Source: Candidatus Scalinduaceae bacterium
GTDB taxonomy: Bacteria; Planctomycetota; Brocadiia; Brocadiales; Scalinduaceae
NCBI GenBank assembly: GCA_046759445.1
Contig: JBHICG010000010.1
Location: 1-64,000, forward strand
Length of the DNA stretch: 64,000 nucleotides
Direction: 5' to 3'
The position numbers and the translations under genes were made by a program. Positions 20,019 to 44,704 of the stretch are shown here, in pieces. Below the pieces are notes generated by a model. It was not told where the DNA came from, searched no databases, and saw only the letters and a program-made list of their open reading frames with translations. Numbering within the stretch: position 1 is the stretch's first letter; every line of letters begins with the position of its first letter.

Positions 20019-20024
20019 GGGGAG

Positions 20025-23504: not shown

Positions 23505-23552
23505 ATCAGATATAGTGTCTATTTCAGCTTTTTCTGTATAGTTCCATGAAGC

Positions 23553-26411: not shown

Positions 26412-28442
26412 TCAGGAATCTTCAACCATTTTTGTTATATTACTTGGAAGCTTTTTTTCTATTCTATACAGGTCCATAATAAATCGGTATTTACCTTTTT
26501 CCTTGGTTGGGCAAACCATAAACTTTTCGATAAGACTTAGTTTGGCACCTGATAAATATTCCGGTAAAGGATACCAACGCCCATCTTTAAATCGCCTGAT
26601 TAAGGCAAAATCAGGTCGAAATCTTTCTACTGGATCTTCATTCATTCCTAATAAAGTAGGGACGGCATATGCATCAGTTTCAATCATTAGGGTATCCGCT
26701 ACCCCACCAATGACAGTAGAATCAGAGTTTACATATTCTCTTAACTTCTTTGAGGTGTCAATCATGGTAAAGGACATATCTTTTGCATAGGATAAATAAC
26801 TATATCCATTAACCAAAAAAAATAATACCCCTATTATTGTAACTACATTTCTGGACAACATTAGCTCAAAATCATATACCATTTGCTTTTTTCTAATTAC
26901 CATGTACATGTAAACTATTAAAGTTATGAACAATAATATAAAAGCCGTTATCAAAATGGCACTTCCAAAATACATACCTTCTTCAACTCCTGTGGTGATA
27001 TTAAGTTTTCTTGAAATCTGAACAATCCAATGTGTTAAGGTCAGGTGGGTAAAAAAGAAAGCAAAAGAGAAGAGGATTAAAAACTGTTTCGTTATATAGA
27101 TAATTTGGGATTTTGATTTTTTGACCATAAAAAAAAGTGACGTAATGAACATAATAACACATGATATCAAACCTGATTGGGCTAGGTTCACATGCAATCC
27201 CAGTCCTACGAGATTCAGAATTTTATTGATGGTCATCATCCCATGAGGTAACAGAAAATATATTGGTATCAGTAGCAATAAATATGACATCCATTGAAAA
27301 TACCAAAACCCATCTTTTCCCCTATAACCGTCATACAAGGCCTTTAGAGAAATACAGCGTACTTCCAATAAAACCTTTGCCGCAAGAATACTCATGGGAG
27401 GAATTAATATAATATATCGTCTATCCGGTTGGAAATGCATAACAGCTATAAAAACACTACCTACAATGAACCAGCTTATTGTCGTAAACTCCAGGGAAGG
27501 CAAATTGGTGAGCAAAGATTGAGGGCTATTTTTTATTGAACATAAAATATGAAGAACGAATATTAAAGATAATGTAACTAAAATAGGTGTCTGGCCAAAG
27601 ATAGGACTTGTTGGAAAGATTGATATATTTCTCAATAACTCAAGCGAACTACTTGAGAGTTGACCAGAATATATCATAGGGTTCGCAGAAGATGACACAC
27701 CAAATAAAAATCCACTTATTAAATGCCAAAAAAGCAAAAGTGGTATGCTCCCAAATATAAAATATACAATCGCAAATTTGTCATTCCCCTTTTTATCCTT
27801 TCGTTGAAAATAATTTTCAAATAAGTATAAAACAAGTATTATAGGAGCAATGACTATACCGTTTGCCTTTGTAAGATAAGCCAAAGACATAGAAAGTCCT
27901 GAAAACAGGTAAAACCATTTATTGTCTTTTCCTTTCTGCCAAAGATAGAGAGTTAAAACAATGAATAATGTTATCATAGTTTCCTGTAAGGCAAGTCTAT
28001 GATATGTCGTAAACACAAAGCAAAAACCCGCAAGACCGGCAGTAAGAAGAGCGCCCCTTCTATCCCATCCACTTTTCACAAAAAGATATAGTAATATTAT
28101 AGTCAGAGACCCAGAGACTGCTGAAACCAGACGGGCCTGCGCAAGGCCTGTGCCAAATAGATTAAAAGAAACATACGAGCCAAGATGGTGAAGAGGAGAG
28201 TTAATGACATTTCTATGATCGTCCATGATCCACTTATCAAATAACACTTTGTTGCGAGCGTTTCTCGTTTTCCATCCCTCATCAGTGAAAAAATGAGCAT
28301 GCGTGTCTGGAGGTGGGTCTGCGCTCAGAAAAGCAAATCTCACAATAAAAATTAAAAAGAATAATAAGAATACAAAGGCCTTCTTATTACTCCATGATTT
28401 CAGCATTGTAAGAAGTTTTTCAGGATTTATCATTAATTTCAC
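26412..28442 (-). CDS. ArnT/PMT-like (GT-C, GT39/83) membrane glycosyltransferase
   Basis: Polytopic; FTDEG, ARLVSAVSG, RLALQE, LAYLTK, RRYIILIPP. Confidence 0.75.
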   Translation of the reverse strand: MKLMINPEKLLTMLKSWSNKKAFVFLLFFLIFIVRFAFLSADPPPDTHAHFFTDEGWKTRNARNKVLFDKWIMDDHRNVINSPLHHLGSYVSFNLFGTGLAQARLVSAVSGSLTIILLYLFVKSGWDRRGALLTAGLAGFCFVFTTYHRLALQETMITLFIVLTLYLWQKGKDNKWFYLFSGLSMSLAYLTKANGIVIAPIILVLYLFENYFQRKDKKGNDKFAIVYFIFGSIPLLLFWHLISGFLFGVSSSANPMIYSGQLSSSSLELLRNISIFPTSPIFGQTPILVTLSLIFVLHILCSIKNSPQSLLTNLPSLEFTTISWFIVGSVFIAVMHFQPDRRYIILIPPMSILAAKVLLEVRCISLKALYDGYRGKDGFWYFQWMSYLLLLIPIYFLLPHGMMTINKILNLVGLGLHVNLAQSGLISCVIMFITSLFFMVKKSKSQIIYITKQFLILFSFAFFFTHLTLTHWIVQISRKLNITTGVEEGMYFGSAILITAFILLFITLIVYMYMVIRKKQMVYDFELMLSRNVVTIIGVLFFLVNGYSYLSYAKDMSFTMIDTSKKLREYVNSDSTVIGGVADTLMIETDAYAVPTLLGMNEDPVERFRPDFALIRRFKDGRWYPLPEYLSGAKLSLIEKFMVCPTKEKGKYRFIMDLYRIEKKLPSNITKMVEDS

Positions 28443-28466
28443 ACCTTGAATCCTTTTACTTAGGCA

Positions 28467-29666
28467 TTATCTAGCTGGCGTCCATATTTTATCCCTTTTA
28501 CCAATAATACACTTAAAAATGCCTGTTAGCACTGCCAGATTAATCACACAAAAATAATATGGAATAAAAAATACTTTAACTCTGGGCAATTTTGCTTTGT
28601 CCATAAAATATCCAAAGAAAGCCAAGATGTAGAATAATAATTGTAATTGAAAGGTTGTGTAATAGAATTTATCTTCCAAAAGTAGAAGATTTGACATAAA
28701 AACTATTATCATAAAGACAGGCGCTAACCATCTAAGAATTTTATGGGAAAAAAGTTCGAAAGAATACCTGGGGTATCGAAACGGATTTAAAACCCTCCTC
28801 ATATGTGATAGGCCAAAAATTGCCCTTGTTACTACCCTGCATCTCATTTTAAATTCTTCTTTTTGACTTTTTGAAGTTTTCTCTATTGAAATAGCCTCTG
28901 ATTCCATTATAGAGCGAAAACCGTTATGACAAACTTTTGCTGTTTTCAAAGAACTGCCAAAATTCTCACTATTAGTAATAAGTCTCAGGGGTGCTATAAA
29001 ATCACTTATATAATCTTCATCAAAAGGAGTATAAAGGCTTCGCCGCATAGAATATATACAACCCGCTGCGCCAATAACTGAACCAATATCACTTTCCATC
29101 CGCTTGATCCAGCTCTCGTATTTCCAGTATAAAGATCCTCCTTCGCCAACTCCAGAATTCGTTTCATTTGTATAAATTACTTCGCCTGTTACAAAACCTA
29201 TTTTCTTATCATTATAGTTTCTAACTAGCTTTTTTATAGCGTTAGATTTGTACATCGTTGGAGCATCAGAAAATACAAGGATTTCGCCTTTCGCAATAGA
29301 AACTGCATTATTTTGTGCTGCAGTCTTGCCTTTTCTTTCTGATAATCTGGCGAGCCTTACGCCCTTATCTTCATATTCTTTAACAATTTTATCCGTTTCA
29401 TCTGTCGAACAATCCGATGCGACTATTACCTCCATCTTATCTTTTGGATAGTCAATATTTAAAGAATCTTCAATTTTCCTCCTTATATTTTTTTCTTCAT
29501 TATATGCAGCTATTATAAGAGATACACTTGGTGTAATGTCTTTTTTATCGATAGGTTTTTTAAAGAAAACACGCAATAACCATAAGATAAGGGGATAGAC
29601 AAAATATGTATATATAATTGGAGATATAGAGATAACAAATATTATTTCAGCCATATAAATCCGCAT
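28467..29666 (-). CDS. Glycosyltransferase family 2
   Basis: VSLIIAAYNEE, SDCSTD, GKTAAQN, FSDA, YWKYE, SHKILRW. Confidence 0.88.
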   Translation of the reverse strand: MRIYMAEIIFVISISPIIYTYFVYPLILWLLRVFFKKPIDKKDITPSVSLIIAAYNEEKNIRRKIEDSLNIDYPKDKMEVIVASDCSTDETDKIVKEYEDKGVRLARLSERKGKTAAQNNAVSIAKGEILVFSDAPTMYKSNAIKKLVRNYNDKKIGFVTGEVIYTNETNSGVGEGGSLYWKYESWIKRMESDIGSVIGAAGCIYSMRRSLYTPFDEDYISDFIAPLRLITNSENFGSSLKTAKVCHNGFRSIMESEAISIEKTSKSQKEEFKMRCRVVTRAIFGLSHMRRVLNPFRYPRYSFELFSHKILRWLAPVFMIIVFMSNLLLLEDKFYYTTFQLQLLFYILAFFGYFMDKAKLPRVKVFFIPYYFCVINLAVLTGIFKCIIGKRDKIWTPAR

Positions 29667-29721
29667 TGTGAAATGTTATTCTTTGTACTTAATAAGTTAA
29701 GCCTTAGTAGTCTTATATTAT

Positions 29722-29935
29722 GTCGGGTAAAGAACCCGACCTGCCTGTGCCGTAAGCACCTTTCCGCGTGCAAAACGCACAGGCAGGCTCGTAAAAATAC
29801 GATGTATTCGTAGAGCGACTTCCCATACCGGTAACAAGTCAAGCTTCAGCAACACTTTCATACACCCCTCTAAAAGAGGGGCCAAGGAGATATATATCTA
29901 CACCACCCCCCTTAATCCCCTCTTTCTAGAGGGGA
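29722..29935. repeat. Cluster of REP-like palindromes
   Basis: GTCGGGT-N5-ACCCGAC (29722-29740); CCTGCCTGTGC...GCACAGGCAGG (29740-29787); CCCCTC-TAAAA-GAGGGG (29865-29881); TCCCCTCT-TTCT-AGAGGGGA (29916-29935). Confidence 0.65.
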
Positions 29936-29966
29936 AACTATTATTGAAATTTCTATACAATCAAGT

Positions 29967-30626
29967 TCACACCTTGTCACAAAAAACCACTACACAATAT
30001 AGCTTCCCTACCCTACCTATGCTGTACTTTTTTATACCCGCCGCTTCCATCAAAGATTTTAGTCTGCGCTTTGTATAAAAATAGACATCACACTTCTTCA
30101 AGGTTAGGCGAACTTTTCTAAGAGGCGCCCTCCAGGTAAAAAATCTTGGGAAGGAGAGAATAAGTTTGTCATTTGTTAATCCTCGCATTTTTTTTATAAT
30201 TGGTAGTGGTTCCTTGATATAATCAAAAAGTCCAATCCCAATAGTCACATCAAACTTTGAGTTTGTTTTAAATTCGAGTAGATCAGTCTGGAAAAAATCG
30301 CAACTTTTCACCACATTGTTATCCCTTGCATACTTTTGAGATGAATGTATCATATTTTCAGAAATATCTAGACCAACAACATGTTCTGCCGCTCTTTTAG
30401 CAAATTCAACAGAATATAGACCGGTCCCACACCCAACATCTAAAAAGGTCTTGCCCTTGATAGGCTTGGAGTTTTCAATTGTGAACTCAAACCTTTGATA
30501 CATATCCTTCCTGAAGATCTTATCCAACAAGACTTGAAACTTTGATTTTTTGTGTGTATAGATTGAGTCAAAAGCTCTATTCTCAGAATCCCAAAATTTT
30601 CTTTGCATTTCAATTTCGTAATTCAC
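29967..30626 (-). CDS. Class I SAM-dependent methyltransferase
   Basis: FLDVGCGTG, GLDISENM, GLFDY. Confidence 0.85.
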   Translation of the reverse strand: MNYEIEMQRKFWDSENRAFDSIYTHKKSKFQVLLDKIFRKDMYQRFEFTIENSKPIKGKTFLDVGCGTGLYSVEFAKRAAEHVVGLDISENMIHSSQKYARDNNVVKSCDFFQTDLLEFKTNSKFDVTIGIGLFDYIKEPLPIIKKMRGLTNDKLILSFPRFFTWRAPLRKVRLTLKKCDVYFYTKRRLKSLMEAAGIKKYSIGRVGKLYCVVVFCDKV

Positions 30627-31441
30627 AGTTTAAGTACCTCCTTTATTGTAGTAAATTCAAAATCGTCTAGTAACCATTCCAGCCTTTCCTCTGTTTTTTT
30701 CAAGTTATAATAATGTCTGAACTTTTTCATAAAGGAAAGGCCTATCCGAGGCAAATCCGGATCCACTTCCCAAGGATGTAGATAAAAGACCACTGGTCTT
30801 CCATAGTTATTACATTTTCTTATACCGTATCTGGTAAAAAAATAAGGAAATACCCTGAAATACCCACCACCACTGCATGGCACGTTCTCACCGAATACAT
30901 TAAAACAGCTCAAAGGGAATTCCCAAAGGCCATCCTGTACTTTGTACGGGCCTTCTGGAACATCTGGTACGCCGTAATCAGGATGATATTTTACGGGGAA
31001 AATAGAGGAGTCGTATTTTATCTTTTGTTTTTTTAAAACGTCAAAAGCCCAAAAGGTAGCCCTGGTAATTGAAAATGAGGGAGCTCTAAAACCGATTATC
31101 TCCTGATCCGTGTACCTCCCTATAGTTTCAATTGACTTGCAAAGGTCTTTTTCGAATTCCTGAGGAGTTATCTTGGTTAATAAGGAATGGGAATAGCCAT
31201 GTGTTGCAATCTCATGGCCTTCGCTACTTATTTTCACGACAATTTCTGGGTAACGATCTGCTATCCAACCCAAAACAAAAAATGTTGCCTTAACCCCTTT
31301 ACTACTCAAAATTGACAATATCTTGAATGTATTTCGCCTTATTCTCGACTCACACTGTTCCCACTTCTTAACATCTATTATCTCACTAATATTGTTAGCA
31401 CAAAACCAATCCTCGACATCTATAGAAATAGCATTTTTCAT
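30623..31441 (-). CDS. Polysaccharide deacetylase, XrtA/PEP-CTERM system-associated type (DUF3473)
   Basis: NAISIDVEDWF, ATFFVLGWIA, GHEIATHGYSH, GFRAPSFSI, GGGYFR, FYLHPWEVDP. Confidence 0.88.
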   Translation of the reverse strand: MKNAISIDVEDWFCANNISEIIDVKKWEQCESRIRRNTFKILSILSSKGVKATFFVLGWIADRYPEIVVKISSEGHEIATHGYSHSLLTKITPQEFEKDLCKSIETIGRYTDQEIIGFRAPSFSITRATFWAFDVLKKQKIKYDSSIFPVKYHPDYGVPDVPEGPYKVQDGLWEFPLSCFNVFGENVPCSGGGYFRVFPYFFTRYGIRKCNNYGRPVVFYLHPWEVDPDLPRIGLSFMKKFRHYYNLKKTEERLEWLLDDFEFTTIKEVLKL

Positions 31442-32742
31442 AAGTTCAAAGAATTGCCTGCTGAATTTAATAAAATATCAATTATTCTACCACTTGCGTT
31501 ACCTTCACCATAAAAATCATTACAATTGACTATATCGTTATTTATGTTATTTACGACTTGAAAAGGTGGTGCTTTGTCTTCTTTATTCCTGTCAACAATT
31601 GCGTTACAATATTTAACAATCTTATTTGTATTCGCACCTGCAAGAATGTTCCAACCACTTTTCACAGTTTCTACCCATTCCGTTTCATCCCGTAAGGTAA
31701 TGCATGGGGTTTTAAAGAAATATGCCTCCTTTTGCATACCACCAGAATCGGTTGCTATAGCCATGGCATGTTTTTCCAAAAGGATTATATCGAGATAACC
31801 AAACGGTTCAGATATATCAAATGCTACTTTAATATTATGCTGTTGGATAATCTTTTGTGTACGAGGGTGTAAGGGCAAAATTATTTTTATACCTTTATCA
31901 CTTAAATAATTGAGAGCTTCCAATATACTGTTTAAACGACTTATATCATCTGTGTTTTCAGCACGATGAATTGTGCATAAAACATAAGGAACAATAGAAT
32001 TTGCATTGTATCGTAATTTTAGATTCTCAAGATTTTGAGATTTTTTCTCTGCAACACCAAGATAATATAATGCCGTGTCATACATTACATCACCTGTATT
32101 AGCAACTATATGAATAGACTTTTTATTTGAAAAATCCAATATACTATTTTTCTCGTTCTTTATGCCTTCCTTTTGTAAATTTTTCACAGCAACTTCAGTA
32201 GGGCACAGCAAAATATCAGATAATTCATCACTAACTATCCTGTTAACTTCCTCAGGCATCCGTCTGTTGTAACTCCTCAAACCTGCCTCAACATGAACTA
32301 TGACAGGACGTAATGCCTTTTTAACAAATTGATGATAAAATTCTCTTTGATTCTTTTTGCTATTTAAATCGTATCTTACTTTGCATGCAGCCAATGCACC
32401 GGCAATCGTTGAATTAGTATCGCCATACAATAAAACAATATCAGGGTATTCTTCATATATTACCTGTTCGATTCTTGAGAGCATATCACTTGTCTGAACA
32501 GCATGAGACGCAGAGCCTACTTCCAGATTATAATCAGGTCTTGGTATTTCTAAATCATCAAAAAATATTTTAGACATATTTTCGTCATAATGTTGCCCTG
32601 TATGTACTATAACCTCCTTGATCAATATCTCTAGGCCTGGATTATTATTATAATTTTTTATAGCTCTTGAGATTGCGGACGCTTTAATAAACTGTGGACG
32701 GGCACCAATAATGGTAAGTATTTTTAAGATTGCATGTTGCAT
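31438..32742 (-). CDS. wecB: UDP-N-acetylglucosamine 2-epimerase (non-hydrolysing; WecB/WbpI-like)
   Basis: IIGARPQFIK, HTGQHYD, YGDTNST, HVEAGLRS, PEEVNR, TDSGGMQKEA, RDETEW. Confidence 0.9.
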   Translation of the reverse strand: MQHAILKILTIIGARPQFIKASAISRAIKNYNNNPGLEILIKEVIVHTGQHYDENMSKIFFDDLEIPRPDYNLEVGSASHAVQTSDMLSRIEQVIYEEYPDIVLLYGDTNSTIAGALAACKVRYDLNSKKNQREFYHQFVKKALRPVIVHVEAGLRSYNRRMPEEVNRIVSDELSDILLCPTEVAVKNLQKEGIKNEKNSILDFSNKKSIHIVANTGDVMYDTALYYLGVAEKKSQNLENLKLRYNANSIVPYVLCTIHRAENTDDISRLNSILEALNYLSDKGIKIILPLHPRTQKIIQQHNIKVAFDISEPFGYLDIILLEKHAMAIATDSGGMQKEAYFFKTPCITLRDETEWVETVKSGWNILAGANTNKIVKYCNAIVDRNKEDKAPPFQVVNNINNDIVNCNDFYGEGNASGRIIDILLNSAGNSLNL

Positions 32743-32756
32743 AACTTCAGTATATA

Positions 32757-33728
32757 TTACACTCTCTCGTTTGTTAAATATTCTTCTATGTTATACTCTT
32801 TAATATCCCTGGCATGGGTAAAAATTATTATCTCTCCAACTAGGCCAATAGACAAGGTCTGGATACCTAAAACCATTAATATGACCCCCAGCAGCAAAAG
32901 GGGTCTGTCTGCTATTCCACCAAATCCTAAAATTTTGTAAAAAGAAAGGTAACCGTTTATAATACCTCCTACTCCAAACAATGCTATTCCTATTAATCCA
33001 AAAAAGCGAAGTGGCTTCATGGTAAATTTTGATATAAAAAATACTGTCAGTATATCAAGCAAGCGACGGATATATGTTCCTGAACCTACTAATCTTATAG
33101 TAGTATCTTCTATTCTTTGTCTTGCTTTCACTTCCTTTATCTTAAAACCATGTTTATGTGCCAATATTGGTATAAACCTGTGCAAATCTCCGTATAGTTG
33201 AATTTCATCAAAGACCTTTTTCTTCATGCCTTTAAGTCCGCAGCTAATATCATGAAAATGTGTTGAGGTTATTTTCGACATTATCCAGTGAAAAATTAAA
33301 GATTGAAGCCTATTCAATTTTGAATCAATTCTTGGATAGCGCCTGGTTAATACAAGGTCATAGCCATTATTCAATTTATTCCAAATGGTATTTATGGTTT
33401 CTGGTTCTACCTGGAAATATGATGCTAGAGTAAAAATATAATCCCCCTGAGCCTTTTCAGCTCCAACAGATAGCGCAATCGATTCACCAAAGTTTTTAAC
33501 AAGCTTAATGATTTTTATGGATGGATGCCTAGTTTTCAACTTTTTTAAATCCTCAAATGCTTCAAAGAACCCTCCATCTACTACAAAAATAAATTCATAG
33601 GATTTGTCGAGTTTATCAAACGCTGATGAGTACTCGGAATATAGTTTGTGAAAGTTATCGTATCGTTCTACTACTGGAACAATAACTGAGATATCGATAC
33701 CCTTATTATCAGTCATAATCTTTTCCAA
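32757..33728 (-). CDS. GT2 polyprenol-phosphate glycosyltransferase-like protein lacking the DxD motif
   Basis: Clear paralog of 34117-35067 (LYGDLHRFIP, KPLRFFG), but VVDGG / TLASYFQ replace VDDGS / SMDGDLQ. Confidence 0.75.
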   Translation of the reverse strand: MEKIMTDNKGIDISVIVPVVERYDNFHKLYSEYSSAFDKLDKSYEFIFVVDGGFFEAFEDLKKLKTRHPSIKIIKLVKNFGESIALSVGAEKAQGDYIFTLASYFQVEPETINTIWNKLNNGYDLVLTRRYPRIDSKLNRLQSLIFHWIMSKITSTHFHDISCGLKGMKKKVFDEIQLYGDLHRFIPILAHKHGFKIKEVKARQRIEDTTIRLVGSGTYIRRLLDILTVFFISKFTMKPLRFFGLIGIALFGVGGIINGYLSFYKILGFGGIADRPLLLLGVILMVLGIQTLSIGLVGEIIIFTHARDIKEYNIEEYLTNERV

Positions 33729-33780
33729 TTAATTCAAGTAAGTTTTTCAGCAATTAGTAAGAGTCAATTAATTTGCAACG

Positions 33781-34089
33781 TTCCGGGTTGCGAGTTAAAT
33801 AGAAAAATCTAAATGGAAAAATAATAATTAAAACTATTTTTGTCTTAGTTTCTTTTGTACGGTAATAATTGATTGGCCTATAATGGTACTTAACTTTTCC
33901 GCTTCATTAAGTATATCTTTTAACTTATTGGCAGGAATTAATTTTATGTGTCACTCCCGAAAAACAACCTACCTGGTTAGTAAACAAAGAATTTGACCCT
34001 GACTTTCGTCAGGACATGTTTACATCGTTCGTTGTGCCACAGAAAGACATGAGAGTTTAACACGTAACCCGAAACTCGCAACTAGCAAC
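33781..34089. repeat. Inverted degenerate heptamer repeats bracketing the four-helix-bundle remnant
   Basis: TTCCGGG-TTGCGAG-TT (33781-33796) versus AACACGT-AACCCGA-AACTCGC-AACTAGC-AAC (34059-34089); perfect 10-bp IR GTTGCGAGTT/AACTCGCAAC. Confidence 0.6.
33834..33950 (-). pseudogene. C-terminal remnant of a four-helix-bundle protein gene
   Basis: My translation HIKLIPANKLKDILNEAEKLSTIIGQSIITVQKKLRQK*; no start; flanked by inverted heptamer-type repeats. Confidence 0.5.
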
Positions 34090-34116
34090 CATAAATCCAT
34101 TTATGTCCTTTAATTT

Positions 34117-35067
34117 TTACAACACCTCAATTGCTACCTTTTTAACTATATCTTTCTGCTTAAAATCACCAGTCTTAAGGACCATTTCGCTAAGCATGCC
34201 TAACAGTATCATATGTACAAAAAGAAAAATAAACAAAAAGGATATTGAAGGGAAGATTATGGGAAATGAACTAAAAATAAATGGATTTAAATATAAATTT
34301 ATTGAGAATAACATAAACATAGTTCCCATTATTAGAAAGGGAAGACTCAACATTCCAAACAAGAGGCTGGGCTTTGTTGAAAATCCAACCAACATCTTTA
34401 CCGTAAATATATCAAGAAAGACTTTCCATATTCTTGATAGCCCATATTTACTAGTTCCAAATTTTCTAGCATGATGGTTAACTACAATTTCAGTATACTT
34501 TATTCCTACAATGGACGTCATTGCAGGGATAAAACGATGCATCTCGGAATATAATCTGATTTTCTTTATAGTTGCACTCCGGTACGCCTTCAAAGAACAG
34601 CCGTTATCGTGAATCTTTACACCAGTAACTTGCCCAATCAACCGATTGGCAATTTTTGAAGGAATCTTACGAGAGACTAATTTATCTTTCCGATTCTTTC
34701 TCCATCCGCATACTATGTCGTAACCTTCTTCAATCTTTTCAAGAAATTTAGGTATATCTTTTGGGTCATTTTGTAAGTCTCCATCCATGCTTACGACAGT
34801 TCTACCCTTTGCATGATCAAAACCCGCTTGCATGGCAGGGGTTTGGCCATAATTTTTTCTAAATTTTATCACCTTCAGATAAGGGTCTTTTTCATGGATG
34901 GTCTTAGCTCGTTCAAAGGTTTCATCACTACTTCCATCATCAACGAAGATGATTTCGTAACTCCTGTTTAAGCCCTTCATCACTTCGGTTATAGAATCAT
35001 AAAGACGGATGATACTTTCCTCTTCGTTGTAAAGAGGAACCACGACTGAAATATCTATTTCAGGCAT
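34117..35067 (-). CDS. GT2 polyprenol-phosphate glycosyltransferase (ArnC/DPM-like)
   Basis: SVVVPLYNEE, FVDDGSSD, RKNYGQT, SMDGDLQNDP, LYSEMHRFIP; two C-terminal TMs. Confidence 0.9.
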   Translation of the reverse strand: MPEIDISVVVPLYNEEESIIRLYDSITEVMKGLNRSYEIIFVDDGSSDETFERAKTIHEKDPYLKVIKFRKNYGQTPAMQAGFDHAKGRTVVSMDGDLQNDPKDIPKFLEKIEEGYDIVCGWRKNRKDKLVSRKIPSKIANRLIGQVTGVKIHDNGCSLKAYRSATIKKIRLYSEMHRFIPAMTSIVGIKYTEIVVNHHARKFGTSKYGLSRIWKVFLDIFTVKMLVGFSTKPSLLFGMLSLPFLIMGTMFMLFSINLYLNPFIFSSFPIIFPSISFLFIFLFVHMILLGMLSEMVLKTGDFKQKDIVKKVAIEVL

Positions 35068-35235
35068 ATTAACCCTCGATTGAAAAATAGTAGATATATG
35101 AAACTTGACATATATGGTTTCATAAATTTATTTAGTCAAGTCTTAAAATACTCTATTGTTTTCTTAAAACCCTTATTCAAAGTTTTTATATAATATGTAA
35201 ATTTGATATAACTTCTAATATTTGTTTACTTTAAG

Positions 35236-35730
35236 TGGGCGTAGCTCCGCCCTCTAAGTTACATCTTAGGATGTAACTTACAGGATGATTTCATCTAAAT
35301 AATATCTTATCGGCTGAGCGAGTCATTCAGACATATGCCGTAAAATGTCGCAGAACTCAGAACACAAATTTCATATAACAGTTACGATTACAAGGCTCGT
35401 TTTGTGCGTTGCTTTATAGTTGCATAATGTGGATTGATTTCAATATTGTCTTGTTATAAACATATTTAACTGCTAAAAATTGGAATTATAAGTTTATTCG
35501 CAAATGTTTTGCCCAAGATCTGGCAATTTTGTAAAGATAAACTTTAAAATATATAACTTATGCACACATAACTAATTATGAATATAATGAAATACCTGAT
35601 TATTTTCCAAATGTCATCTGATGTTTACAAAAATCAACACTTCTTTTTTTAACTTTCATAACACATTGCTAATGCAAGAGATAAGAATATCCAACAAAAG
35701 CTGACAGAATGTTACCTTTTTGAATATTTT
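35236..35730 (-). promoter_or_regulatory. Conserved regulatory cassette copy B
   Basis: Minus strand TGGGCAAAACATTTGCG 35499-35515; TGT-N12-ACA 35622-35639; leader with perfect TAAGTTACATC-N4-GATGTAACTTA hairpin followed by GAGGGCGGAGCTACGCCC, 35236-35280. Confidence 0.8.
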
Positions 35731-36327
35731 TGAATATTTGGAATTAGCATTTAGGTGGGAATCACTTTTAGGAGAAATGTCTAAGACTTAATAACTCATA
35801 ATATTGGATAATAAATCGCTAACGGTCATGTGATTTCGAGCTTTGAAATGAGGATTTTGGATTTATATTCTTTACTCAACAATTCGATATATGCAATCAG
35901 CAATTTAAATGAATACGTTAATAAAAACCTGTTCCTGGTTCAGAAATTTTTATCAACAGGATTTCTCTAATTTCGGTGTGGGTTACGGTTAGGATTACCA
36001 ACTCGACAAGCATTCTGGCGCGGGAGGTCGGTGTAATATCGGGTTCCCGTCCGAACCGGTCTAGCCAGGGGTTAAAGCAAAAAGTAACCAACTACTTAAT
36101 CCATTGACCAAACATGCCTCTTGTTAAGTCGTTAGGTTAAGATAAAGATGCAAAATAGTACATGTTTTTGTTCTGGCTTGTTTAGGTTAGGCTTAAGATA
36201 AGTCACTTTATTCCGTCAAAGAAAGCTTCAGATAAAGTTGGTAATTCGCTCTGTGGGATTACCCAATGGGATAAAGCTAAATGAGGGGTGATACAGTTTT
36301 ACCTGTAAGACTGGTCTAGCCGCCATC

Positions 36328-38469
36328 TCATGGCATCAAAAACAATCCTGTTGGAGGTGGTGGCGGGGTTGTGTCGGGAGCTGAACCTGTTTCTTGCCCT
36401 ACTATCATAACTGTATACATAGGTCCACTACCTTCATTACCACCAAGCGTAATTTCACCTGCTTGAAAACCCTTGACAAATAGACTAAATGAAACATTAG
36501 TTATGTTGACATCTTCACCAGTGTCAACGAACGATGTCAACCATGATGGTTTTGCAGTAATTTTATTAGCATGAGCCACATACACTTTAACATCCTGATT
36601 CACGTCAAAGGAAAGGAATGAGTTACCGCTAGAGACTTTATCATCATTGGCCGTCTTGATATACAGGGCTCCTTCTACTAGAGCAGGTACATTACTATAT
36701 ATGTATGTTCGGTCTATGTAGGCAAGTTCTCCATTGTGGATTCCACTCTGGACAACCTCGTATTGCTTATTACTGGCTACGGCTAGGTTACTTATTACTA
36801 ATTGAGATACAAATGTGTAGTTCTTAGTGGTATTGGGAGCAATCACATTGGGGACGCTTGCTTGGTCTTTTACGTTGTTGATGGTTAATGTATAAGAAAG
36901 TCCTTCTGTATGCGGACTTGTGGTTAGAGTTACGGTTTTTAAATCAGAAGAAAGTGTTGCAGATGAAATAATGATACTATTGTCAATATTGTAATTAGCC
37001 ACACTTGTCGCGCTTGTTTGTTCTACGGCTTCGCTTAAAGCTACAATAACTTGTGTAGGATCACTGCTTGCAGTCGCAGAAATTATTGTCGGTGGGGTTG
37101 TGTCTAAAAAGGTTGTTTCTGAAACCGAAGTGCTCTTTATTCCCTCAAGTCCTGCTCCATTTACGGCTGAGACCTCGTAAGCATATGTGGTGCCCTCACT
37201 AAGTTCTGTGTCTGAAAAAGAGGTTGTGGTGGACTGTCCGACGTTTACGCTGTCTCTGTAAATCTTATAGTTACTGATACCTGATTCAGTATCATTTGCT
37301 CCCTGCCAGGAAAGATCAATCTGGTTCTCACTTTGGGCAGCAGCGTTCAGGTTTTGAGGAGTTGAGGGGGGGGTGGGATCAGAAACTGCAGATACTACAA
37401 AGCTTCCCTTTACTGTATTCCATGAGTCAGAACTACCAATGCCTGTAAAAATAATCGTAAAATCCTTTCCATCTGCACTCAACCACTTGTTGGAAAAATT
37501 CCAGAAAAAGGCACTACTGAAGCCTCCCCAGTTATCATAATATCCAACTGTCGTCCATGGTCCCCATGGCTCTGGAGCATCAAAGATGCCGAGATTGCCG
37601 TCAAAAGTGTCCGTGTGTTCTGTGGAAAGAAGGTAGCGCTTCAAACCGGCATTATAGCTGACGCTGACAGTCCAGCCAACGCCATTTAGATCCTCAAAAA
37701 CGGGCTTGCGGGCGGAGAGGTTGCTCGTCCAGACAGGATTTCCATTTCTATCGAGCTCTACAAAGAACTCATACGCATTTTTGTTCATAATTTGGTCTTT
37801 TGGAACTCGCGCTAAGTCAATCTGTCCCGGCTTGAATACCTTGAAACTCCCGACATCGGCATGGATGAAATAACTATAAACATAATTGTCGCGTGCACCG
37901 GCGTAATCCCTACCATAATTCAAAAAAGTACCAGAAACTAGATTGAGAGAAGGAGGAAAATCCCAGTTGGCTTTTGTCCACGTAGCCCCATGATCAGTGG
38001 ACATAGCTAGCTTGGCATGAGTGCTATCCATCTGGCGCAGCCACATGTATAGAATACCATCGATGGAGAGAATCCCATAACTTTTTCCTCCAAACTGAGC
38101 AGGGTTCTCAGGGCTTTTGCCTCCCCATACGTTGAAACCTTTATAGCTTGTGCTTGAGCCTTCTATTCTGGCCACACCAAGACTGACTCTGCCGCTAGTA
38201 TTCGAGCCACCGAAGCCCCCTCCGTCTCCCCAAGAGGTATACTGATGATTGTCATCTGCCCATGTTATTGGCCAGTTATCACTTCCTGATGCTTTCTCAA
38301 TGTGCGAAGAAAAGTTCCATACGATATCAGACACGATAGGACTTGGAGGATATGGTGAATCCAAGGCAAAAACATCTTTTATATTATGCATGGTAGTAAA
38401 TATCACGCTTATTATAAAAATCAATTTAAAAAATCTTGTAAATTTTATGAAAGCATAATATTGTGACAT
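36328..38469 (-). CDS. Secreted multidomain protein: DUF4185-like N-terminal domain, fibronectin type III, Ig-like and C-terminal beta domains
   Basis: Signal-like N-terminus; GSDNWPITWADD..WGDGGGFGG; DAPEPWGPWTTV; Fn3 PSTPQNL..IDLSW..YKIYRD..YAYEVSAVN. Confidence 0.7.
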   Translation of the reverse strand: MSQYYAFIKFTRFFKLIFIISVIFTTMHNIKDVFALDSPYPPSPIVSDIVWNFSSHIEKASGSDNWPITWADDNHQYTSWGDGGGFGGSNTSGRVSLGVARIEGSSTSYKGFNVWGGKSPENPAQFGGKSYGILSIDGILYMWLRQMDSTHAKLAMSTDHGATWTKANWDFPPSLNLVSGTFLNYGRDYAGARDNYVYSYFIHADVGSFKVFKPGQIDLARVPKDQIMNKNAYEFFVELDRNGNPVWTSNLSARKPVFEDLNGVGWTVSVSYNAGLKRYLLSTEHTDTFDGNLGIFDAPEPWGPWTTVGYYDNWGGFSSAFFWNFSNKWLSADGKDFTIIFTGIGSSDSWNTVKGSFVVSAVSDPTPPSTPQNLNAAAQSENQIDLSWQGANDTESGISNYKIYRDSVNVGQSTTTSFSDTELSEGTTYAYEVSAVNGAGLEGIKSTSVSETTFLDTTPPTIISATASSDPTQVIVALSEAVEQTSATSVANYNIDNSIIISSATLSSDLKTVTLTTSPHTEGLSYTLTINNVKDQASVPNVIAPNTTKNYTFVSQLVISNLAVASNKQYEVVQSGIHNGELAYIDRTYIYSNVPALVEGALYIKTANDDKVSSGNSFLSFDVNQDVKVYVAHANKITAKPSWLTSFVDTGEDVNITNVSFSLFVKGFQAGEITLGGNEGSGPMYTVMIVGQETGSAPDTTPPPPPTGLFLMP

Positions 38470-38693
38470 AAACGTATCTCCTCTAATTTACCTTATTTAA
38501 ATTTTTTTGATAGATCAAATCTGTCTCGTACCTAAAATACTAAAGCAATCATTTAAAAACAGTTTTTCAAATTACAACTTCACTAAACGACAGAAGGAAC
38601 AACTGAATCGTATAGTTGATTTTTACTAATTATAATTTGTTTCGGAACAAAAAAATAACGAATATCAAATAATCAAAACTTTTTGAATGATTT

Positions 38694-38870
38694 CGCAAAG
38701 GAAATGCCAAAGAATTGGTTATTTTGTAAATAGTTGATATAAAATAAAAATGATACCAATGGTAGGCTTTGATATTGTAACTTTTAGAACTTTTTCCACC
38801 AAAAACAATTATTTTGATAAAAGATTAAAAAATGTATTCATACAATTAATTGTGTATAATATTGATACAC
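38694..38870 (-). promoter_or_regulatory. Separate sigma-54 promoter with IHF site and upstream palindrome, serving 36328-38469
   Basis: Minus strand TTGGCATTTCCTTTGCG 38694-38710; TATCAACTATTTA 38727-38739; GTGTAT-N7-ATACAC 38852-38870. Confidence 0.7.
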
Positions 38871-39628
38871 TTAAAAGTAATAATTAACTACATAGCCAAA
38901 GAGGAGCATTTTTTAAAATTATGCGGCGCTATGTTGTGTTGTTAAATTTAACTATAGAACTTATTTCATTTTACGTTGGCATAGATTTACTGTCACTAAA
39001 ATTAACATGAATGGTAATGTGATGATAAAGCTCAAGAAAAATTACATACAAATTATTAATTGAAAATACCCCATCCAGCAATTGCCCAATAGTAGCATTA
39101 TCTAATTCAGAGTGCATAATAGGAGGTAATATTGGGTAGGGTGAAATATAATATTCACAACTCAATGGGTAAAAAAGTGGTATTCCTAGTGGAGGCCTTC
39201 CATTGATGGACATATAGTCTAAGAACAAATGAGAACAATAAAGGCTAAAATAGAGGAAGAAATCTCTCTTTATATGTTGTTTTCCTTTGCAGTTAAAAAT
39301 TAATGCTAAAATAATGGAAAATAAGATCCTATTCTAAGACTATGACTAATTCCATGGTGGAATAAATTCGGTTTTCCCATTAATATTCCTTGAATGAAAT
39401 CAAGTTCGGGTGCACTTGCAATGAGGCAAAGAGGATTATTGTTCGTATTTCATTATCTACAAGTGTTTTAGATATGAATGATGCTATAATATAACACCAG
39501 GGAGTGTCCGAAAGGTGATGACAATTTATGTAATTCCAGTACTTTAAAAATATTTGTCTTATAGCTTTAGATATTTCGGTATATATGATTTCCTTAATAG
39601 CTTCACAATATATATAAGTCAAAGTAAA

Positions 39629-39658
39629 TATCCCCGCCTAAAATGACGGGGTATTCAC
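39629..39658. repeat. IS200/IS605-end-like imperfect hairpin; may also act as terminator after the serine hydrolase
   Basis: ATCCCCGCC-TAAAAT-GACGGGGTATTCAC. Confidence 0.4.
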
Positions 39659-39684
39659 GTTATGTTTTTCATAAATACAATCAG

Positions 39685-40917
39685 TTAATCTATCTTTACA
39701 ATTGATTCCATGACCGGATTAAAAATGTATTCATAATTACCATTCATAAAATAATCGTTCTTTAGCCTTGGCCAACCTATTATTTTAAAAAAGTACTTCT
39801 TAATTTGAGTTAATATCTCCTGATTAAGCGATCCTCCATTCCGTACAACGATTAAATTTAAACTTGGAACCACGAGGAGAACCTGATTTCCGGCACCGGC
39901 TCCAACAAAAGCGTCTGGAGGAACGGATGGCCATATCCTATCATAATTTACCCACCAACAGATTCCCGAAGCAGGCCTGGGTTCACCAGGTATTCGCTCA
40001 GGTATTGGCGTATCAGCATAAGTAGTTATCTTCTCAACCCAAATGGGATCAACAAGCTGTCGTCCCTCCCAGTTCCCTTTCCTGAGCATAAAACGACCAA
40101 TACGAGCTATTGCCCTCGGAGTAAAAGAACTCCCACTATAAATAGCATAAAGTTTTAAACCATCAACAATATATGATCTACCATAACCTATGGTCCAATC
40201 AGTTTCCTTTACTCCAATGGGAGACAGAATTCTCTCTTTTAGTAGATTATATATATCATCTTGTGGTTCATCCTGCAGACTAGCAGTAATAGCATAACCT
40301 AGCATTGCATATCCAGGCCCACTATACGCATAGCTAGTACCTGGTTCGAACATAACTGGTGCATAATCACGCGCAATTGAAAATGGGTCAGGATTTCGTT
40401 TCCAAAATTTTTCCTGCCATCCATCAACACTCACGTAGGATTTATCTGTAGGTTTTCCGTGTGAGATTCCAGATGAATTTGTTGCCAAATGCTTAATTGT
40501 AATCTTTGATTTTTGAGAGTCATGTCTCCATTGTGGAATATATTTACATGCTAGATCATCAATCTCCATCAAACCGTCATTCAAAGCTACAAGTAAAGAC
40601 AATCCTCCCACTGAGGATTTTGCCAAAGAAGCTGTATGGTGCTTTTTCTCCTTACTATAACCCTCTGCATATCGTTCAAAAACAATATAGTCATTTCGAA
40701 TGATGACCAACGCATGCGTTCTCTTTTTCTTGAGTGTATGCCACATATTATCCAGCTTCTCTAAAGACATACCCTGGCTTTCTGGTAATGCTTTCTTCCA
40801 TTCAAATTCACTCTGACTTGCCGAAGCACTAACTAGGCATGTGTAAAAAAGATTCGAAAAAAGTAAAATAATTATTGCTGAAAATTGGTTTACATTAATC
40901 ATTATAAATCTTTTCAT
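39685..40917 (-). CDS. Secreted serine hydrolase, beta-lactamase/class C-like family
   Basis: Signal peptide; PESQGMS, SxxK (ASLAKS), TIKHLAT, PGTSYAYS, GAGNQ..VVPSLNLIVVR. Confidence 0.85.
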   Translation of the reverse strand: MKRFIMINVNQFSAIIILLFSNLFYTCLVSASASQSEFEWKKALPESQGMSLEKLDNMWHTLKKKRTHALVIIRNDYIVFERYAEGYSKEKKHHTASLAKSSVGGLSLLVALNDGLMEIDDLACKYIPQWRHDSQKSKITIKHLATNSSGISHGKPTDKSYVSVDGWQEKFWKRNPDPFSIARDYAPVMFEPGTSYAYSGPGYAMLGYAITASLQDEPQDDIYNLLKERILSPIGVKETDWTIGYGRSYIVDGLKLYAIYSGSSFTPRAIARIGRFMLRKGNWEGRQLVDPIWVEKITTYADTPIPERIPGEPRPASGICWWVNYDRIWPSVPPDAFVGAGAGNQVLLVVPSLNLIVVRNGGSLNQEILTQIKKYFFKIIGWPRLKNDYFMNGNYEYIFNPVMESIVKID

Positions 40918-40972
40918 TTAATGTCCAAAGGTGATAATTTAATTAATTAATTCCTGTTTTTCCAAAAACTAT

Positions 40973-42907
40973 TTATTTTGAAACCAAATGAGCTTGTGAA
41001 TAAAGGATGTCCTTAATAGATTCTTTACTTTTTTTTTCAATATACATTCGGTACCATATTTCTGAATTACAAAGTAGCCATAATCTGTTGCCATGATCTA
41101 CCTTTTTATTAAGATGTTCATTAAGCAAAAGATTTATTGCGGTTTGGTTTAGATAACCATCACGAACCAACCTGGAATTATTCAAAAATGTTTTGTATAA
41201 AAGCCTGAATTCGTCTGCCAATAGGTACGTGAGAGGGGAAGAAAATCCTTGTTTTTTCTTCTTTATCAATGCCGGCGGAAGGTATTTTTTTGCCAACTCA
41301 ACCTGTATGTATCTTAATTTTTTACGTCTCACCTTAAACCGGGGAGGTATCGAGGCACAGAATTCCGCTAGCTTATGGTCAAGGAAAGGCGAACGCGCCT
41401 CCAGGCCATGTGCCATCGTCATCCTATCCAGGATCATAACCGGGTGGTCCGGCATTCGGACCATGCTATCTGAATAAAGCATCTTATCGATAAGTTCAGT
41501 TGCATTTTGACTATTGAAAAAATCCTTTATACATCCCTCGGGATCAAAGATCCCTACATTTCCTTGAAACTTCTCAGTATAAAGGCTGCTTTTAAAACTA
41601 TCCGAAAAATAAAAATAACTCAGGCTTTTTGAGTAGCGCTCCCCACCCTTATATAAGGACATCTGTTGCATCCATCTTAGTTTATGACTGAAGCTTCTAT
41701 ACCAGAAACCTTCAGGTACAAGATTCATTAACTTTCCAAGAACATGTTTACGAACATAATCAGGTATAAGGGCATAGTATGATACTAAATCGTTCCCATA
41801 ATAGCGGTCATAACCTCCGAATAGCTCATCTCCACCATCGCCTCCTAATACAACCTTCACTTCCTTCCTGGCCAATTCAGAAATATAATACATGCAAACA
41901 GAAAGGGGATCGGAAGGCTCATCGAGATGCCAAACTAATTCCGGAAGTGTTTGGACTAATGATGGATTAATTGTTAACTCACGATGCTCTGTCATGTATT
42001 TATCTGATAGCATCCTGGCATATGGGAGTTCACTATAATTTTCATAGGGCACATCACCGGAAAAGGTCTTTATCGGTTTTCCACTTATTTGACTCATCAT
42101 TGCCACTACGAGGCTGGAATCCATTCCACCACTCAAAAAAGCCCCAACGGGCACATCACTTACCAAATGATACTTGACAGTGGAAATAAGCTGGTTTTCT
42201 AACTCTTCCAGAATAGAATCAAAATCACCATTTAGCTTTGGTCCATATTTTAAACTCCAGTACCGCTTAATAAATATTTTACCGTTTTGGAATGTAAGGA
42301 AATGACCAGGTGGAAGCTTTCTGATTCTGCGGAACATAGAACGTGGAGGGGTAATAATGCGAATCGTCAGATATTCATATAAGGCGTTGCAGTCGAGTTC
42401 TCTCAATTCAGGCTTTAAAGCCAGTAAAGCTTTTATTTCAGAGGCAAAAGCAAAGATGTTTCCATCATGATAATAGTAAAGTGGCTTTTGCCCAAGATGG
42501 TCTCTTGCCATAAATAGTTTTTTCTTTCTATTATCATATACGGCAAAGGCAAACATACCGCGCAAATATTTGAGGCAAGCTTCTTCTTTATCTTCATAAA
42601 GATGCAAAATTACCTCTGTATCGCTTTTAGTCTTGAACTGATGCTTTTCTTCCAGTCCTTCTCTAATTTCCAAATAATTATATATCTCACCGTTTAGGGT
42701 AATCCAAAGTGTATCGTCTTCATTAGACATAGGTTGTCGCCCATTGGCAAGGTCTATAATAGAGAGTCTCCTATGGCCAAATCCAACATTTTGATTTATA
42801 CAGACTCCTTGGTCATCCGGCCCCCTGTGTACAAGAGCAGAAACCATACGTTGAAGTTCTTCCTCTCTAACACATTCAGGATCTATCTTACCGCAAATTC
42901 CGCACAT
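40973..42907 (-). CDS. asnB: Asparagine synthase-like glutamine amidotransferase, paralog 3
   Basis: MCGICG, HRGPD, RRLSIIDL, FLSGGMDSS, GGDGGDELFGGY, KKQGF. Confidence 0.92.
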   Translation of the reverse strand: MCGICGKIDPECVREEELQRMVSALVHRGPDDQGVCINQNVGFGHRRLSIIDLANGRQPMSNEDDTLWITLNGEIYNYLEIREGLEEKHQFKTKSDTEVILHLYEDKEEACLKYLRGMFAFAVYDNRKKKLFMARDHLGQKPLYYYHDGNIFAFASEIKALLALKPELRELDCNALYEYLTIRIITPPRSMFRRIRKLPPGHFLTFQNGKIFIKRYWSLKYGPKLNGDFDSILEELENQLISTVKYHLVSDVPVGAFLSGGMDSSLVVAMMSQISGKPIKTFSGDVPYENYSELPYARMLSDKYMTEHRELTINPSLVQTLPELVWHLDEPSDPLSVCMYYISELARKEVKVVLGGDGGDELFGGYDRYYGNDLVSYYALIPDYVRKHVLGKLMNLVPEGFWYRSFSHKLRWMQQMSLYKGGERYSKSLSYFYFSDSFKSSLYTEKFQGNVGIFDPEGCIKDFFNSQNATELIDKMLYSDSMVRMPDHPVMILDRMTMAHGLEARSPFLDHKLAEFCASIPPRFKVRRKKLRYIQVELAKKYLPPALIKKKKQGFSSPLTYLLADEFRLLYKTFLNNSRLVRDGYLNQTAINLLLNEHLNKKVDHGNRLWLLCNSEIWYRMYIEKKSKESIKDILYSQAHLVSK

Positions 42908-43011
42908 ATCTTTTTTTTATATTGAAAAACATAATAAATTTTATCAATATTAGCTTCTGAATGTATTTTATCCATTAATTTTACACATTTGTAAACAGTG
43001 TATTCATCTGG

Positions 43012-43944
43012 TCATAAAGCATCTTCTTTCAATTTAACAATCTTTAAGGAATGTTTATCTCTTAAATAGAAAATGCCACCGATCAAACTGATGGGAACTA
43101 CTAACGCCCTATTAAACAGCATGAACATCAAGGCATGTTCATATTCCAAACCATATTTCCCAATTACATAAACAAAAGCCCCATCCATCACCCCAATACC
43201 GTTAATTGAGACAGGTAATAACGCCACAAAATTGCTTATCATTACGGCTACAACAAGTTTGAAAATTGAAATATCCGCACCGAGCGCACGGATTAAAACA
43301 ATCATCCAAGCTAAAGTAAAAACATGAAAAAAAAATGAAATTAGTACAACCTGTAAAGTTTTTGCAGGCTCATAACAATAATCTCCCAGGTGTTCCATAC
43401 ATTGTTTAAGTTTCCACAAGAACCTAATATTTGTAAGCAACCTCGGCATTACTCTTGACAAAACTATAACACATGCAATTGACGTAATCATGGTTATTAC
43501 TAAAAATGCCAATACAACCCAAGGCAACAAGTTACTAGTAATGCCTTGTAAGCATATTACAATATAACCTATAGACCCAAGTATTACCAAAGCCCAGATA
43601 CCCGTTATACGTTCCATGAACACGGCTATTAGGGCTCCAGCCCTGAAGTGAGAATTTTGTAACGTTTTATATATTCGGTATGCATCCCCCCCTATATTGG
43701 TGGGAAGAAAATTGTTGAAAAATACAGAAGTAAAATAGTATTTGTGAAGAACCAAGAAACTGAAATGGTTCTTATGTATTGATAATAATACCTTCCATTT
43801 GAAAGTGCTTATCGTAACACAAAAAACCATACAGAAAAAAACAATTATAATTAAAAATATATTAGAGTTTTGCAAGGTATACCAGATACGACTCCAGTCA
43901 CCTTTCCAAATAATAAATGTACAAAGCGTTATAGTAACAATCAT
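43012..43944 (-). CDS. Lysylphosphatidylglycerol synthase TM-domain / flippase-like membrane protein (UPF0104)
   Basis: KWKVLL, FFNNFLPTNIGGDAYR, ERITG, LPVSINGIGV. Confidence 0.85.
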   Translation of the reverse strand: MIVTITLCTFIIWKGDWSRIWYTLQNSNIFLIIIVFFCMVFCVTISTFKWKVLLSIHKNHFSFLVLHKYYFTSVFFNNFLPTNIGGDAYRIYKTLQNSHFRAGALIAVFMERITGIWALVILGSIGYIVICLQGITSNLLPWVVLAFLVITMITSIACVIVLSRVMPRLLTNIRFLWKLKQCMEHLGDYCYEPAKTLQVVLISFFFHVFTLAWMIVLIRALGADISIFKLVVAVMISNFVALLPVSINGIGVMDGAFVYVIGKYGLEYEHALMFMLFNRALVVPISLIGGIFYLRDKHSLKIVKLKEDAL

Positions 43945-44163
43945 TTTGATTGCTAAATATATGGTCTTCTTAATCTCTGTTTCCTTTTAAAAGAAATGTA
44001 TTCAAAATAAGTTAATACCTAATTTTGTTAATGTCTCCGGGGAACGTTAACGGCAAAATCTCATCTCAGAGAATAGCTACCATTAAATCCCTTCAGAAAC
44101 AACGGTTACTTAGACCATAATCCTTATTTCTCACAAATCCATTTGTTCTTAATGAAATAGATA

Positions 44164-44460
44164 TTAACACAGAACAAAGCATACATATCCATCCCGTGCA
44201 CCTTTGTAATCTTTACCAAAGTTTAAGAAAGTGTTTACCGTAAATGCACGATCATCTTCCATGAATTTCCATTCTGCTTCATTCCACTCTTGAGCGTAGT
44301 TTCTTGAGTAGTAAAGCTGGCAATGGCCTCCCCTTACATTTTCTGGCATAACCCACATATAAAGTACACCAGAAATTACAGGACTTGGAGGATACGGTGG
44401 TTTTTCTTTTGAGCACTCTTGAAATGATAGACTAGTTGCTAATAAAACTATAAATACCAA
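44164..44460 (-). pseudogene. Internally deleted, truncated paralog of the DUF4185-like domain of 36328-38469
   Basis: PYPPSPVIS|GVLYMWV...FLNFGKDYKGARDGYV aligns to PYPPSPIVS...GILYMWL...FLNYGRDYAGARDNYV with about 90 aa missing. Confidence 0.7.
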
Positions 44461-44704
44461 ACGGTACTCTACAACTATTTATTGCGTTACGAGTGAGTTC
44501 GTAACCAATAAAATTATCCTGATTCAGCACATAAATTCTTATTATTTCCAAATCCCCTTGATTATAGCTAATCTTAAGTCTGAAACTGAATCTTCCTTCG
44601 TCTTTTCTTCAACGCATGGGAACCACCGTTGTCCAGAATGAAACCTACATAAATACTAATAAAATTACGATGGTTTATCCTTTTAGCCCTAATGGGGGGA
44701 TTAA

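Follow-up and report, generated by a model that had tools for sequence, protein, structure and literature searches.

A conserved leader element ahead of glycan gene runs in an anammox genome: a candidate loading site for a stand-alone UpxY-type NusG paralog

What is the role of a short motif that recurs ahead of long glycan gene runs in a Candidatus Scalinduaceae genome (GCA_046759445.1), in which a hydrazine-synthase-alpha-type match agrees with an anammox bacterium? The window analysed here, 64,000 nucleotides of contig JBHICG010000010.1, carries three 45-nt copies of the motif, all on the minus strand, exactly where a first-pass annotation had placed them; a further full copy on contig C5 and a variant on contig C29 of the same genome had been overlooked. 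Matches to the core pattern number three in the window against 0.06 expected, a count reached in 0 of 100 shuffles, and a weight-matrix scan scored the C5 copy at 58.5 bits, the runner-up, at 15.3 bits, being the reverse strand of copy B. The copies and the gene runs behind the window copies are:

19631–19675, minus strand: element copy A, with the loop variant GCAGAGC
35236–35280, minus strand: element copy B
56644–56688, minus strand: element copy C
C5:66395–66439: fourth full copy (weight-matrix match)
C29:24939–24952, minus strand: variant fifth site
502–19486, minus strand: unit A, 14 co-directional ORFs of at least 100 aa (glycosyltransferase, O-antigen ligase-like protein, amidotransferases, DAHP synthase, AMP ligase)
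20025–35067, minus strand: unit B, 12 co-directional, putatively co-transcribed ORFs of at least 100 aa (glycosyltransferases, flippase, epimerases, deacetylase, methyltransferases)
36328–56227, minus strand: unit C, 12 co-directional ORFs of at least 100 aa (flippase-like protein, epimerases, glycosyltransferase, carbamoyltransferase, amidotransferase); the unit may end at 39685

All five sites of this genome lie on the sense strand ahead of glycan gene runs, the minus strand of the three window copies being the coding strand of the flanking genes and of nearly all long ORFs. The co-directional runs downstream of the four full copies extend over 19.2, 15.2, 20.3 and 13.8 kb, and the C5 copy precedes another glycosyltransferase run; no site was found at the glycan clusters of this genome on C4, C20 and C40. 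Two details of gene content are worth recording. Inside unit A, positions 6280–12148 (minus strand) encode a class II DAHP synthase, a chorismate lyase-like protein, an AMP ligase and hydrolases, accompanied by an 88-aa carrier-protein-like ORF starting at 8164, which suggests that the glycan is decorated with aromatic acyl groups. A 60-aa ORF (56290–56472, minus strand) lies between copy C and the first complete gene; assigned to its family by eye, it opens with an NAD-dependent epimerase-type glycine-rich start, runs into a stop and is likely a gene remnant.

Each window copy follows a sigma-54-type site, and the module around that of unit B was delimited by blastn and alignment:

19749–19763, minus strand: sigma-54-type site of unit A
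35500–35514, minus strand: sigma-54-type −24/−12 site (GG-N10-GC) of unit B, with predicted promoter activity
56878–56892, minus strand: sigma-54-type site of unit C
35487–35725, minus strand: duplicated promoter module of unit B, comprising enhancer-like and AT-rich blocks and the sigma-54-type site

In copies A, B and C, the motif lies 74, 220 and 190 nt from the sigma-54-type GC, in agreement with the earlier estimates of about 75, 220 and 190 nt. A promoter module of about 250–330 bp ending in GG-N10-GC is common to all four full leaders, and the genome encodes rpoN (406 bits). The proposed coupling of the element to sigma-54 promoters therefore stands for this genome (4/4 full leaders) but not as a feature of the element, for which it was rejected: a sigma-54-type site occurs within 300 nt in just 5 of the 105 GTDB copies among the matches listed and, at the level of the order, in 5 of 29 copies, three of them from this genome. 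Moreover, the module also stands ahead of glmS on C16, where the leader is short and the element missing, so that the promoter module can occur without it. The coupling thus appears to be a trait of this genome rather than of the element. The enhancer-like block of the module also occurs, with the element absent, at C16:30234–30312 (glmS) and at C8:74371–74483, ahead of a sensor-kinase-like gene. Scans of positions 18000–37000 gave no signal for either sigma-70 promoters (77 sites against 76 expected) or terminators (14 against 10.6), and the few terminator-like hairpins inside the units were left out of the evidence.

What had been described as a conserved 45-nt, two-stem element is narrower than that: a core of about 24 nt is retained across homologs and the two stems are not. 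The consensus reads TGTAACT-N-A-NNN-GGCG(A/G)AGCT-R-Y-R, and outside about 26 nt conservation drops to background among the 120 GTDB matches listed. In copy B, the core and the stems map as follows, the pause register being taken from alignment with E. coli ops:

35240–35263, minus strand: core, TGTAACT-TAGAG-GGCGGAGCTAC|G, the predicted pause-and-load site
35257–35263, minus strand: TGTAACT, the most invariant half of the core and also the 3' arm of the hairpin
35244–35250, minus strand: GCGGAGC, which fits opsX GCGNAGC; predicted non-template mini-hairpin
35251 and 35250, minus strand: G at −11 and −10 of the predicted pause
35241 (C) and 35240 (G), minus strand: RNA 3' end of the predicted pause and the next base
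35255–35280, minus strand: 11-bp RNA hairpin, a candidate pause hairpin ending at −15
35237–35252, minus strand: second, 5-bp stem, not generally conserved

An independent bracketing of the element comes from a single contig of run X1, which matches the window solely at 35242–35277, its flanks being unrelated; RNA reads were represented by two runs, as contigs only, with a word share of 0.07. Many unrelated contigs match the window only at another place, 29904–29938, a short palindromic repeat with eight look-alikes in the genome at up to six mismatches.

The base pattern of the core resembles that of known pause sites. Among the 120 GTDB matches listed, a pyrimidine occupies −1 in 105, a purine +1 in 108 and both conditions hold in 94, although both positions lie outside the search pattern; together with the guanines at −11 and −10, these bases fit the geometry of the elemental pause. 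The pause position of ops itself is here assumed. According to one of two reviews consulted (PMC7819879, PMC7593976), ops matches the pause consensus. In E. coli K-12, the rfbB leader carries TGTAA, GGCGG and T|G at offsets identical to those of the window copies, and the wza and waaQ leaders match three of the five TGTAA bases. Nevertheless, the element is not ops: the GCGGTAGC hairpin with its loop T does not occur in the window copies, which have GCGGAGC or GCAGAGC and hence a G(A/G)A loop, and TGTAA, which belongs to the 3' arm or the duplex here, lies in the JUMPStart loop in E. coli. The Rfam search called for by the first-pass annotation returned no match in the window at E ≤ 1, JUMPStart (RF01707) included; the same model also misses the ops-bearing relatives L263, L254 and L346, the waaQ leader serving as positive control at 55.2 bits.

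Closer parallels are found in Bacteroides fragilis. In the part of Saba et al. (2024; PMC11685472) available, the description of opsX comprises a pause, an RNA hairpin, a non-template hairpin of sequence YGCGNAGCR and recognition of the upstream duplex; the upstream DNA is contacted near −21 to −24 and −18 to −16, and the pause hairpin ends at about −9 to −16 relative to the pause. The GCGNAGC motif, a conserved upstream duplex, a UpxY-family protein and polysaccharide operons recur here, as does a candidate upstream RNA hairpin. By analogy with that account, TGTAACT, at −23 to −17 relative to the pause, is predicted to serve in recognition of the upstream duplex. The differences, as far as the same portion of the paper goes, are that TGTAACT is absent from its opsA, B, E and F oligos and that the mini-hairpin of the element lies one base further from the predicted pause than in opsX. 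GCGNAGC is present in copies B, C and C5 and absent from copy A, the loop of which breaks GNA. Neither of the two common forms of the putative non-template mini-hairpin folded with the ViennaRNA DNA parameters; folding models deal poorly with sheared-pair GNA triloops.

The element extends well beyond this genome. Among 41 genomes of its own order, a strict pattern was found in 17 (control 2) and a looser one in 22 (control 0), and of 30 loci examined, 26 have a downstream ORF of at least 100 aa, in every case on the motif strand, with none in range for the other four. An exact scan of GTDB returned at least 120 loci in Desulfobacterota, Acidobacteriota, Bacteroidota, Calditrichota, Nitrospirota and others. 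Since about 280 chance matches are estimated for the whole GTDB collection, these loci were examined in context: 116 of the 120 matches listed have a purine at the free loop position, which leaves room for only a few chance matches. The strand bias anticipated earlier is also seen here, the longest downstream ORF being co-directional with the motif at 63 of 72 loci among the matches listed. Sixty-five downstream proteins were scanned out of 80 picked (8 paralog genes, 2 near-duplicates and 5 others were left out): 18 belong to nucleotide-sugar, polysaccharide, export or flippase families, 19 gave nothing at 1e-12, and the remainder included toxin-antitoxin genes, regulators and integrases. In Planctomycetota outside the order, one match each in 4 of 96 genomes against seven control matches amounts to background. 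Viral contigs yielded three pattern matches, and sites were present in all three genomes returned for the genus of G322. At several loci (L083, L093, L107, L108, L122, L126 and L127), the site precedes toxin-antitoxin-type genes, a type II/IV secretion ATPase or integrases, and its targets may extend beyond glycans.

The first-pass annotation had advised looking for an RfaH-, UpxY- or LoaP-like nusG paralog. Three genes of the genome encode NusG-family proteins; two, in ribosomal operons, are of the housekeeping type, and the third stands alone:

C39:29614–30147: stand-alone UpxY-family NusG paralog (NF033644, 135.2 bits against a cut-off of 100)

The same protein falls under the cut-offs of the RfaH model TIGR01955 (80.5 against 144.5 bits) and of the LoaP model NF033641 (62.6 against 125 bits). 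Its gene sits on a contig away from the four target units; Rho is present in the genome and no UpxZ was found in it. In the AlphaFold2 model (pLDDT 88), an NGN domain is followed by a beta C-terminal domain, in contrast to the autoinhibitory alpha-helical C-terminal domain of RfaH, although for a fold-switching family such a model is weak evidence on this point; Foldseek matched NusG, RfaH and Spt5. The TRGV of the paralog aligns with RfaH. The paralog has a D-R-x-K beta-hairpin, unlike the class-1 sequence in the available part of PMC11685472; the UpxY-like proteins encoded next to the site have it too, with R present in 19 of 19 and D in 18, and housekeeping NusG does not. An upstream half-site, possibly decayed, was noticed at C39:30294 (plus strand), about 150 nt past the stop codon of the paralog. 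The two housekeeping nusG-rplK-rplA-rplJ-rplL-rpoB loci (C79:130–678 and C105:4851–5399), whose NusG proteins are 82% identical, reflect either a real duplication or contamination of the bin.

The distribution of the paralog tracks that of the site. In the order, with this genome left out and variant sites counted, 23 genomes have both, 1 has the site only, 3 the paralog only and 13 neither; the site-only genome (G002) is 93% complete, with two sites and one NusG match, and in the three paralog-only genomes (G008, G012 and G021; 85–94% complete) no site was found. Counts in the same sequence are 12, 5, 4 and 79 in the phylum of G041 and 7, 5, 5 and 63 in that of G042, the seed genomes being left out and the paralog being counted above its cut-off. 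The reversed control matched 6 of the 101 genomes in the former phylum and 4 of the 81 in the latter, so that some of the site-only genomes in these two phyla are probably due to chance. Site and paralog thus co-occur in three phyla, even if related genomes are not independent and the Fisher values accordingly overstate the association. Adjacency points the same way: among the matches listed, a UpxY-like gene lies beside the site at 19 of 120 GTDB loci (9 after it and 10 before it) and at 22 of 119 metagenome loci, and in all 41 cases it is on the motif strand.

Variant sites reveal which parts of the core are held constant. A search with the upstream half alone found 25 places in 16 of the 41 genomes of the order, comprising 8 full sites and 17 variants, with one control match; no match came from the 13 genomes without the paralog, which belong to other families of the order. 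For instance, G037 (99% complete) has the paralog and no canonical site at two mismatches; it carries three variant sites, in which the G(A/G)A loop is retained and the stem changed and lengthened. In 13 further variants, including that on C29, the mini-hairpin is missing and T|G stands at an unchanged distance in all; 12 of them carry a G-U-rich upstream stem, with 96% of cells paired. All 17 variants with an altered middle have a pyrimidine at −1. A metagenome scan in which the upstream half and TG were fixed and the eight middle bases left free returned at least 119 loci; among those listed, 67 have GCG-N-AGC, 16 the ops-register GCG-NN-AGY (including L263, an exact ops), 5 the opsX register, 11 the hairpin-less type and 20 other middles, and GCGGTAGC occurs in 3 of the 119. 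Judged from these sequences, the frame is fixed: the middle is exchanged from variant to variant, whereas TGTAAC upstream and the bases typical of a pause are retained. The C29 site, which has the upstream half and the T|G spacing without GCG(A/G)AGC, follows a MarR_EPS-like gene and precedes a glycan run of about 15 kb; its look-alikes follow the same MarR_EPS-like gene in 10 other loci of the family.

Sequence, strand bias, position, ops register, the paralog, co-occurrence and adjacency lead us to infer pausing, binding and antitermination: we consider it quite probable that polymerase pauses at the site (RNA end at 35241 in copy B) and that the UpxY-type paralog is loaded there; the paralog would then suppress premature termination. 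Of the earlier proposal of an ops-like or structured RNA antitermination signal, the ops-like part is thereby upheld by strand bias, ops register and the UpxY paralog, and the structured RNA part is not. A leader RNA with a single or double hairpin, working either on its own or, as has been suggested for LoaP, by recruiting a factor, would account for the strong fold of copy B, in which the perfect 11-bp stem reported earlier was recovered (as was the U-G pair in the 5' arm of copy C) and which, with the 5-bp stem, reaches −24.1 kcal/mol (z −6.0). Folds are weak elsewhere, with z of −1.7 in copy A, −2.1 in copy C and −1.1 in the C5 copy, the hairpins of these three ending at −18 instead of −15. 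Pairing of upstream sequence with TGTAAC also exceeds that in shuffles (0.71 against 0.51 in 29 order-level copies; 0.60 against 0.47 in 116 GTDB copies among the matches listed), albeit modestly (mean z about −0.7 to −0.8), and in the 13 hairpin-less variants an 8-bp stem is paired in 96% of cells, one-sided changes preserving pairing through G-U. Covariation, however, is not above shuffles: for the two stems in fixed register over 30 copies, the value was 0.157 against 0.146, with 71 of 500 shuffles as high, and for the variant hairpin over 13 sites 129 of 500 were as high, neither being significant. In fixed register, just 56% of the cells of helix 1 are paired, only 12 of 29 order-level and 14 of 116 listed GTDB copies have the full second stem, and what is invariant across homologs is sequence, not pairing. 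We regard a structured leader RNA as improbable, and because covariation is not significant we favour a site that acts as DNA, in pausing and recruitment; the stems are lineage-specific, the upstream hairpin being an accessory, candidate pause hairpin rather than a defining feature.

The other readings concern the protein partner. GTTACA-N8-TGTAAC could be a double-stranded operator for a dimeric repressor, such as the nearby MarR-like EPS regulator, an alternative already raised by the first-pass annotation; the N8 palindrome is present in all four full copies of this genome and in 10 of 31 order-level copies, and 24 of the order's 41 genomes have MarR_EPS-like genes, frequently next to the site. 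Yet an exact GTTACA lies upstream in only 9 of the 120 GTDB copies listed, arm-like words being scattered over many spacings: across homologs the left arm is enriched upstream, yet optional and variably spaced. Where the arm deviates, sense-strand G-U pairing is favoured, G-U-compatible variants being enriched and antisense-type ones near background, and the core is asymmetric and strand-biased. MarR_EPS as the cognate factor was rejected, five site-bearing genomes (G001, G004, G007, G009 and G011) having no match to it, and we hold the operator to be very improbable. A pause or attenuation signal without a dedicated paralog, acting through RNA polymerase, NusA or a housekeeping NusG, would suit the retention of pause-type bases even in variants without the mini-hairpin, the sites of G002 with its single NusG match, and the two housekeeping nusG loci of this genome. 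Against it, no site was found in any of the 13 paralog-free genomes, all from other families of the order, and in many phyla the site directly adjoins the paralog gene; such a signal seems unlikely to us.

In the reading that we prefer, a pause site loading the UpxY-type paralog, transcription would start at the upstream sigma-54-type promoter and polymerase would pause 11 nt past the GG (at 35241 in copy B), aided by the upstream RNA hairpin where there is one. GCG(A/G)AGC would fold as a mini-hairpin on the exposed non-template strand, with TGTAACT in the upstream duplex; the paralog would read both, the latter possibly through its basic D-R-x-K beta-hairpin. It would then displace housekeeping NusG, shield the transcript from Rho and carry transcription through 14–20 kb of glycan genes, a single paralog serving all sites in trans in the manner of RfaH. 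Several observations weigh against this reading: the exceptions among genomes (G002, the three with the paralog only and the site-only genomes of the two other phyla), the siteless glycan clusters on C4, C20 and C40, the altered loop of copy A and the 13 variants without a mini-hairpin, the hairpins of copies A, C and C5, whose end at −18 falls short of the range given for opsX, and the small share (18 of 65) of downstream proteins with a clear nucleotide-sugar or polysaccharide match. The leader position before polysaccharide clusters and the single factor in trans recall E. coli JUMPStart/ops and RfaH, and UpxYs without UpxZ may act like RfaH according to the available part of PMC7593976. 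In Bacteroides, sites and UpxYs form locus-specific pairs, with upxY and upxZ as the first genes of the target operon; here one near-invariant site goes with one stand-alone paralog on C39 and no UpxZ, although in other genomes with the element, unlike this one, upxY adjoins the site. LoaP of Bacillus likewise combines a specialized NusG paralog, long operons and a leader hairpin, whereas the present element conserves sequence and not hairpin structure. The element would thus work like ops and opsX while standing outside JUMPStart/ops by sequence and outside the Bacteroides system by gene arrangement.

More tentatively, and as a possibility that we would not yet call probable, the element may be a widespread, possibly ancestral member of a JUMPStart superfamily, in which a fixed frame (the upstream TGTAACT and the pause bases 23 nt later) holds an exchangeable bubble hairpin (a GNA triloop, ops or none) and is read by stand-alone UpxYs through D-R-x-K; E. 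coli ops and Bacteroides opsX would then be derived special cases, and this genome would hold a sigma-54-initiated, trans-acting antitermination regulon. We found no description of the motif in the literature searched, where most subscription papers are missing; the present analysis adds the JUMPStart register, the variant classes that fix the frame, counts of site and paralog together in three phyla and, for one anammox genome, a candidate regulon of five sites, four of them behind sigma-54-type promoters. Beyond RfaH, LoaP and the UpxYs of Bacteroides capsules, the element gives the stand-alone UpxY-type family in several phyla a precisely defined candidate site that can be searched for. A pause base is predicted, and natural variants join ops and opsX in one frame, which makes recruitment directly testable and regulons predictable in uncultured bacteria, and the element points to control of anammox surface glycans at the level of elongation. 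The 6.1-Mb genome G041 (locus L069) contains 16 copies of the site with a single paralog match, a candidate large regulon.
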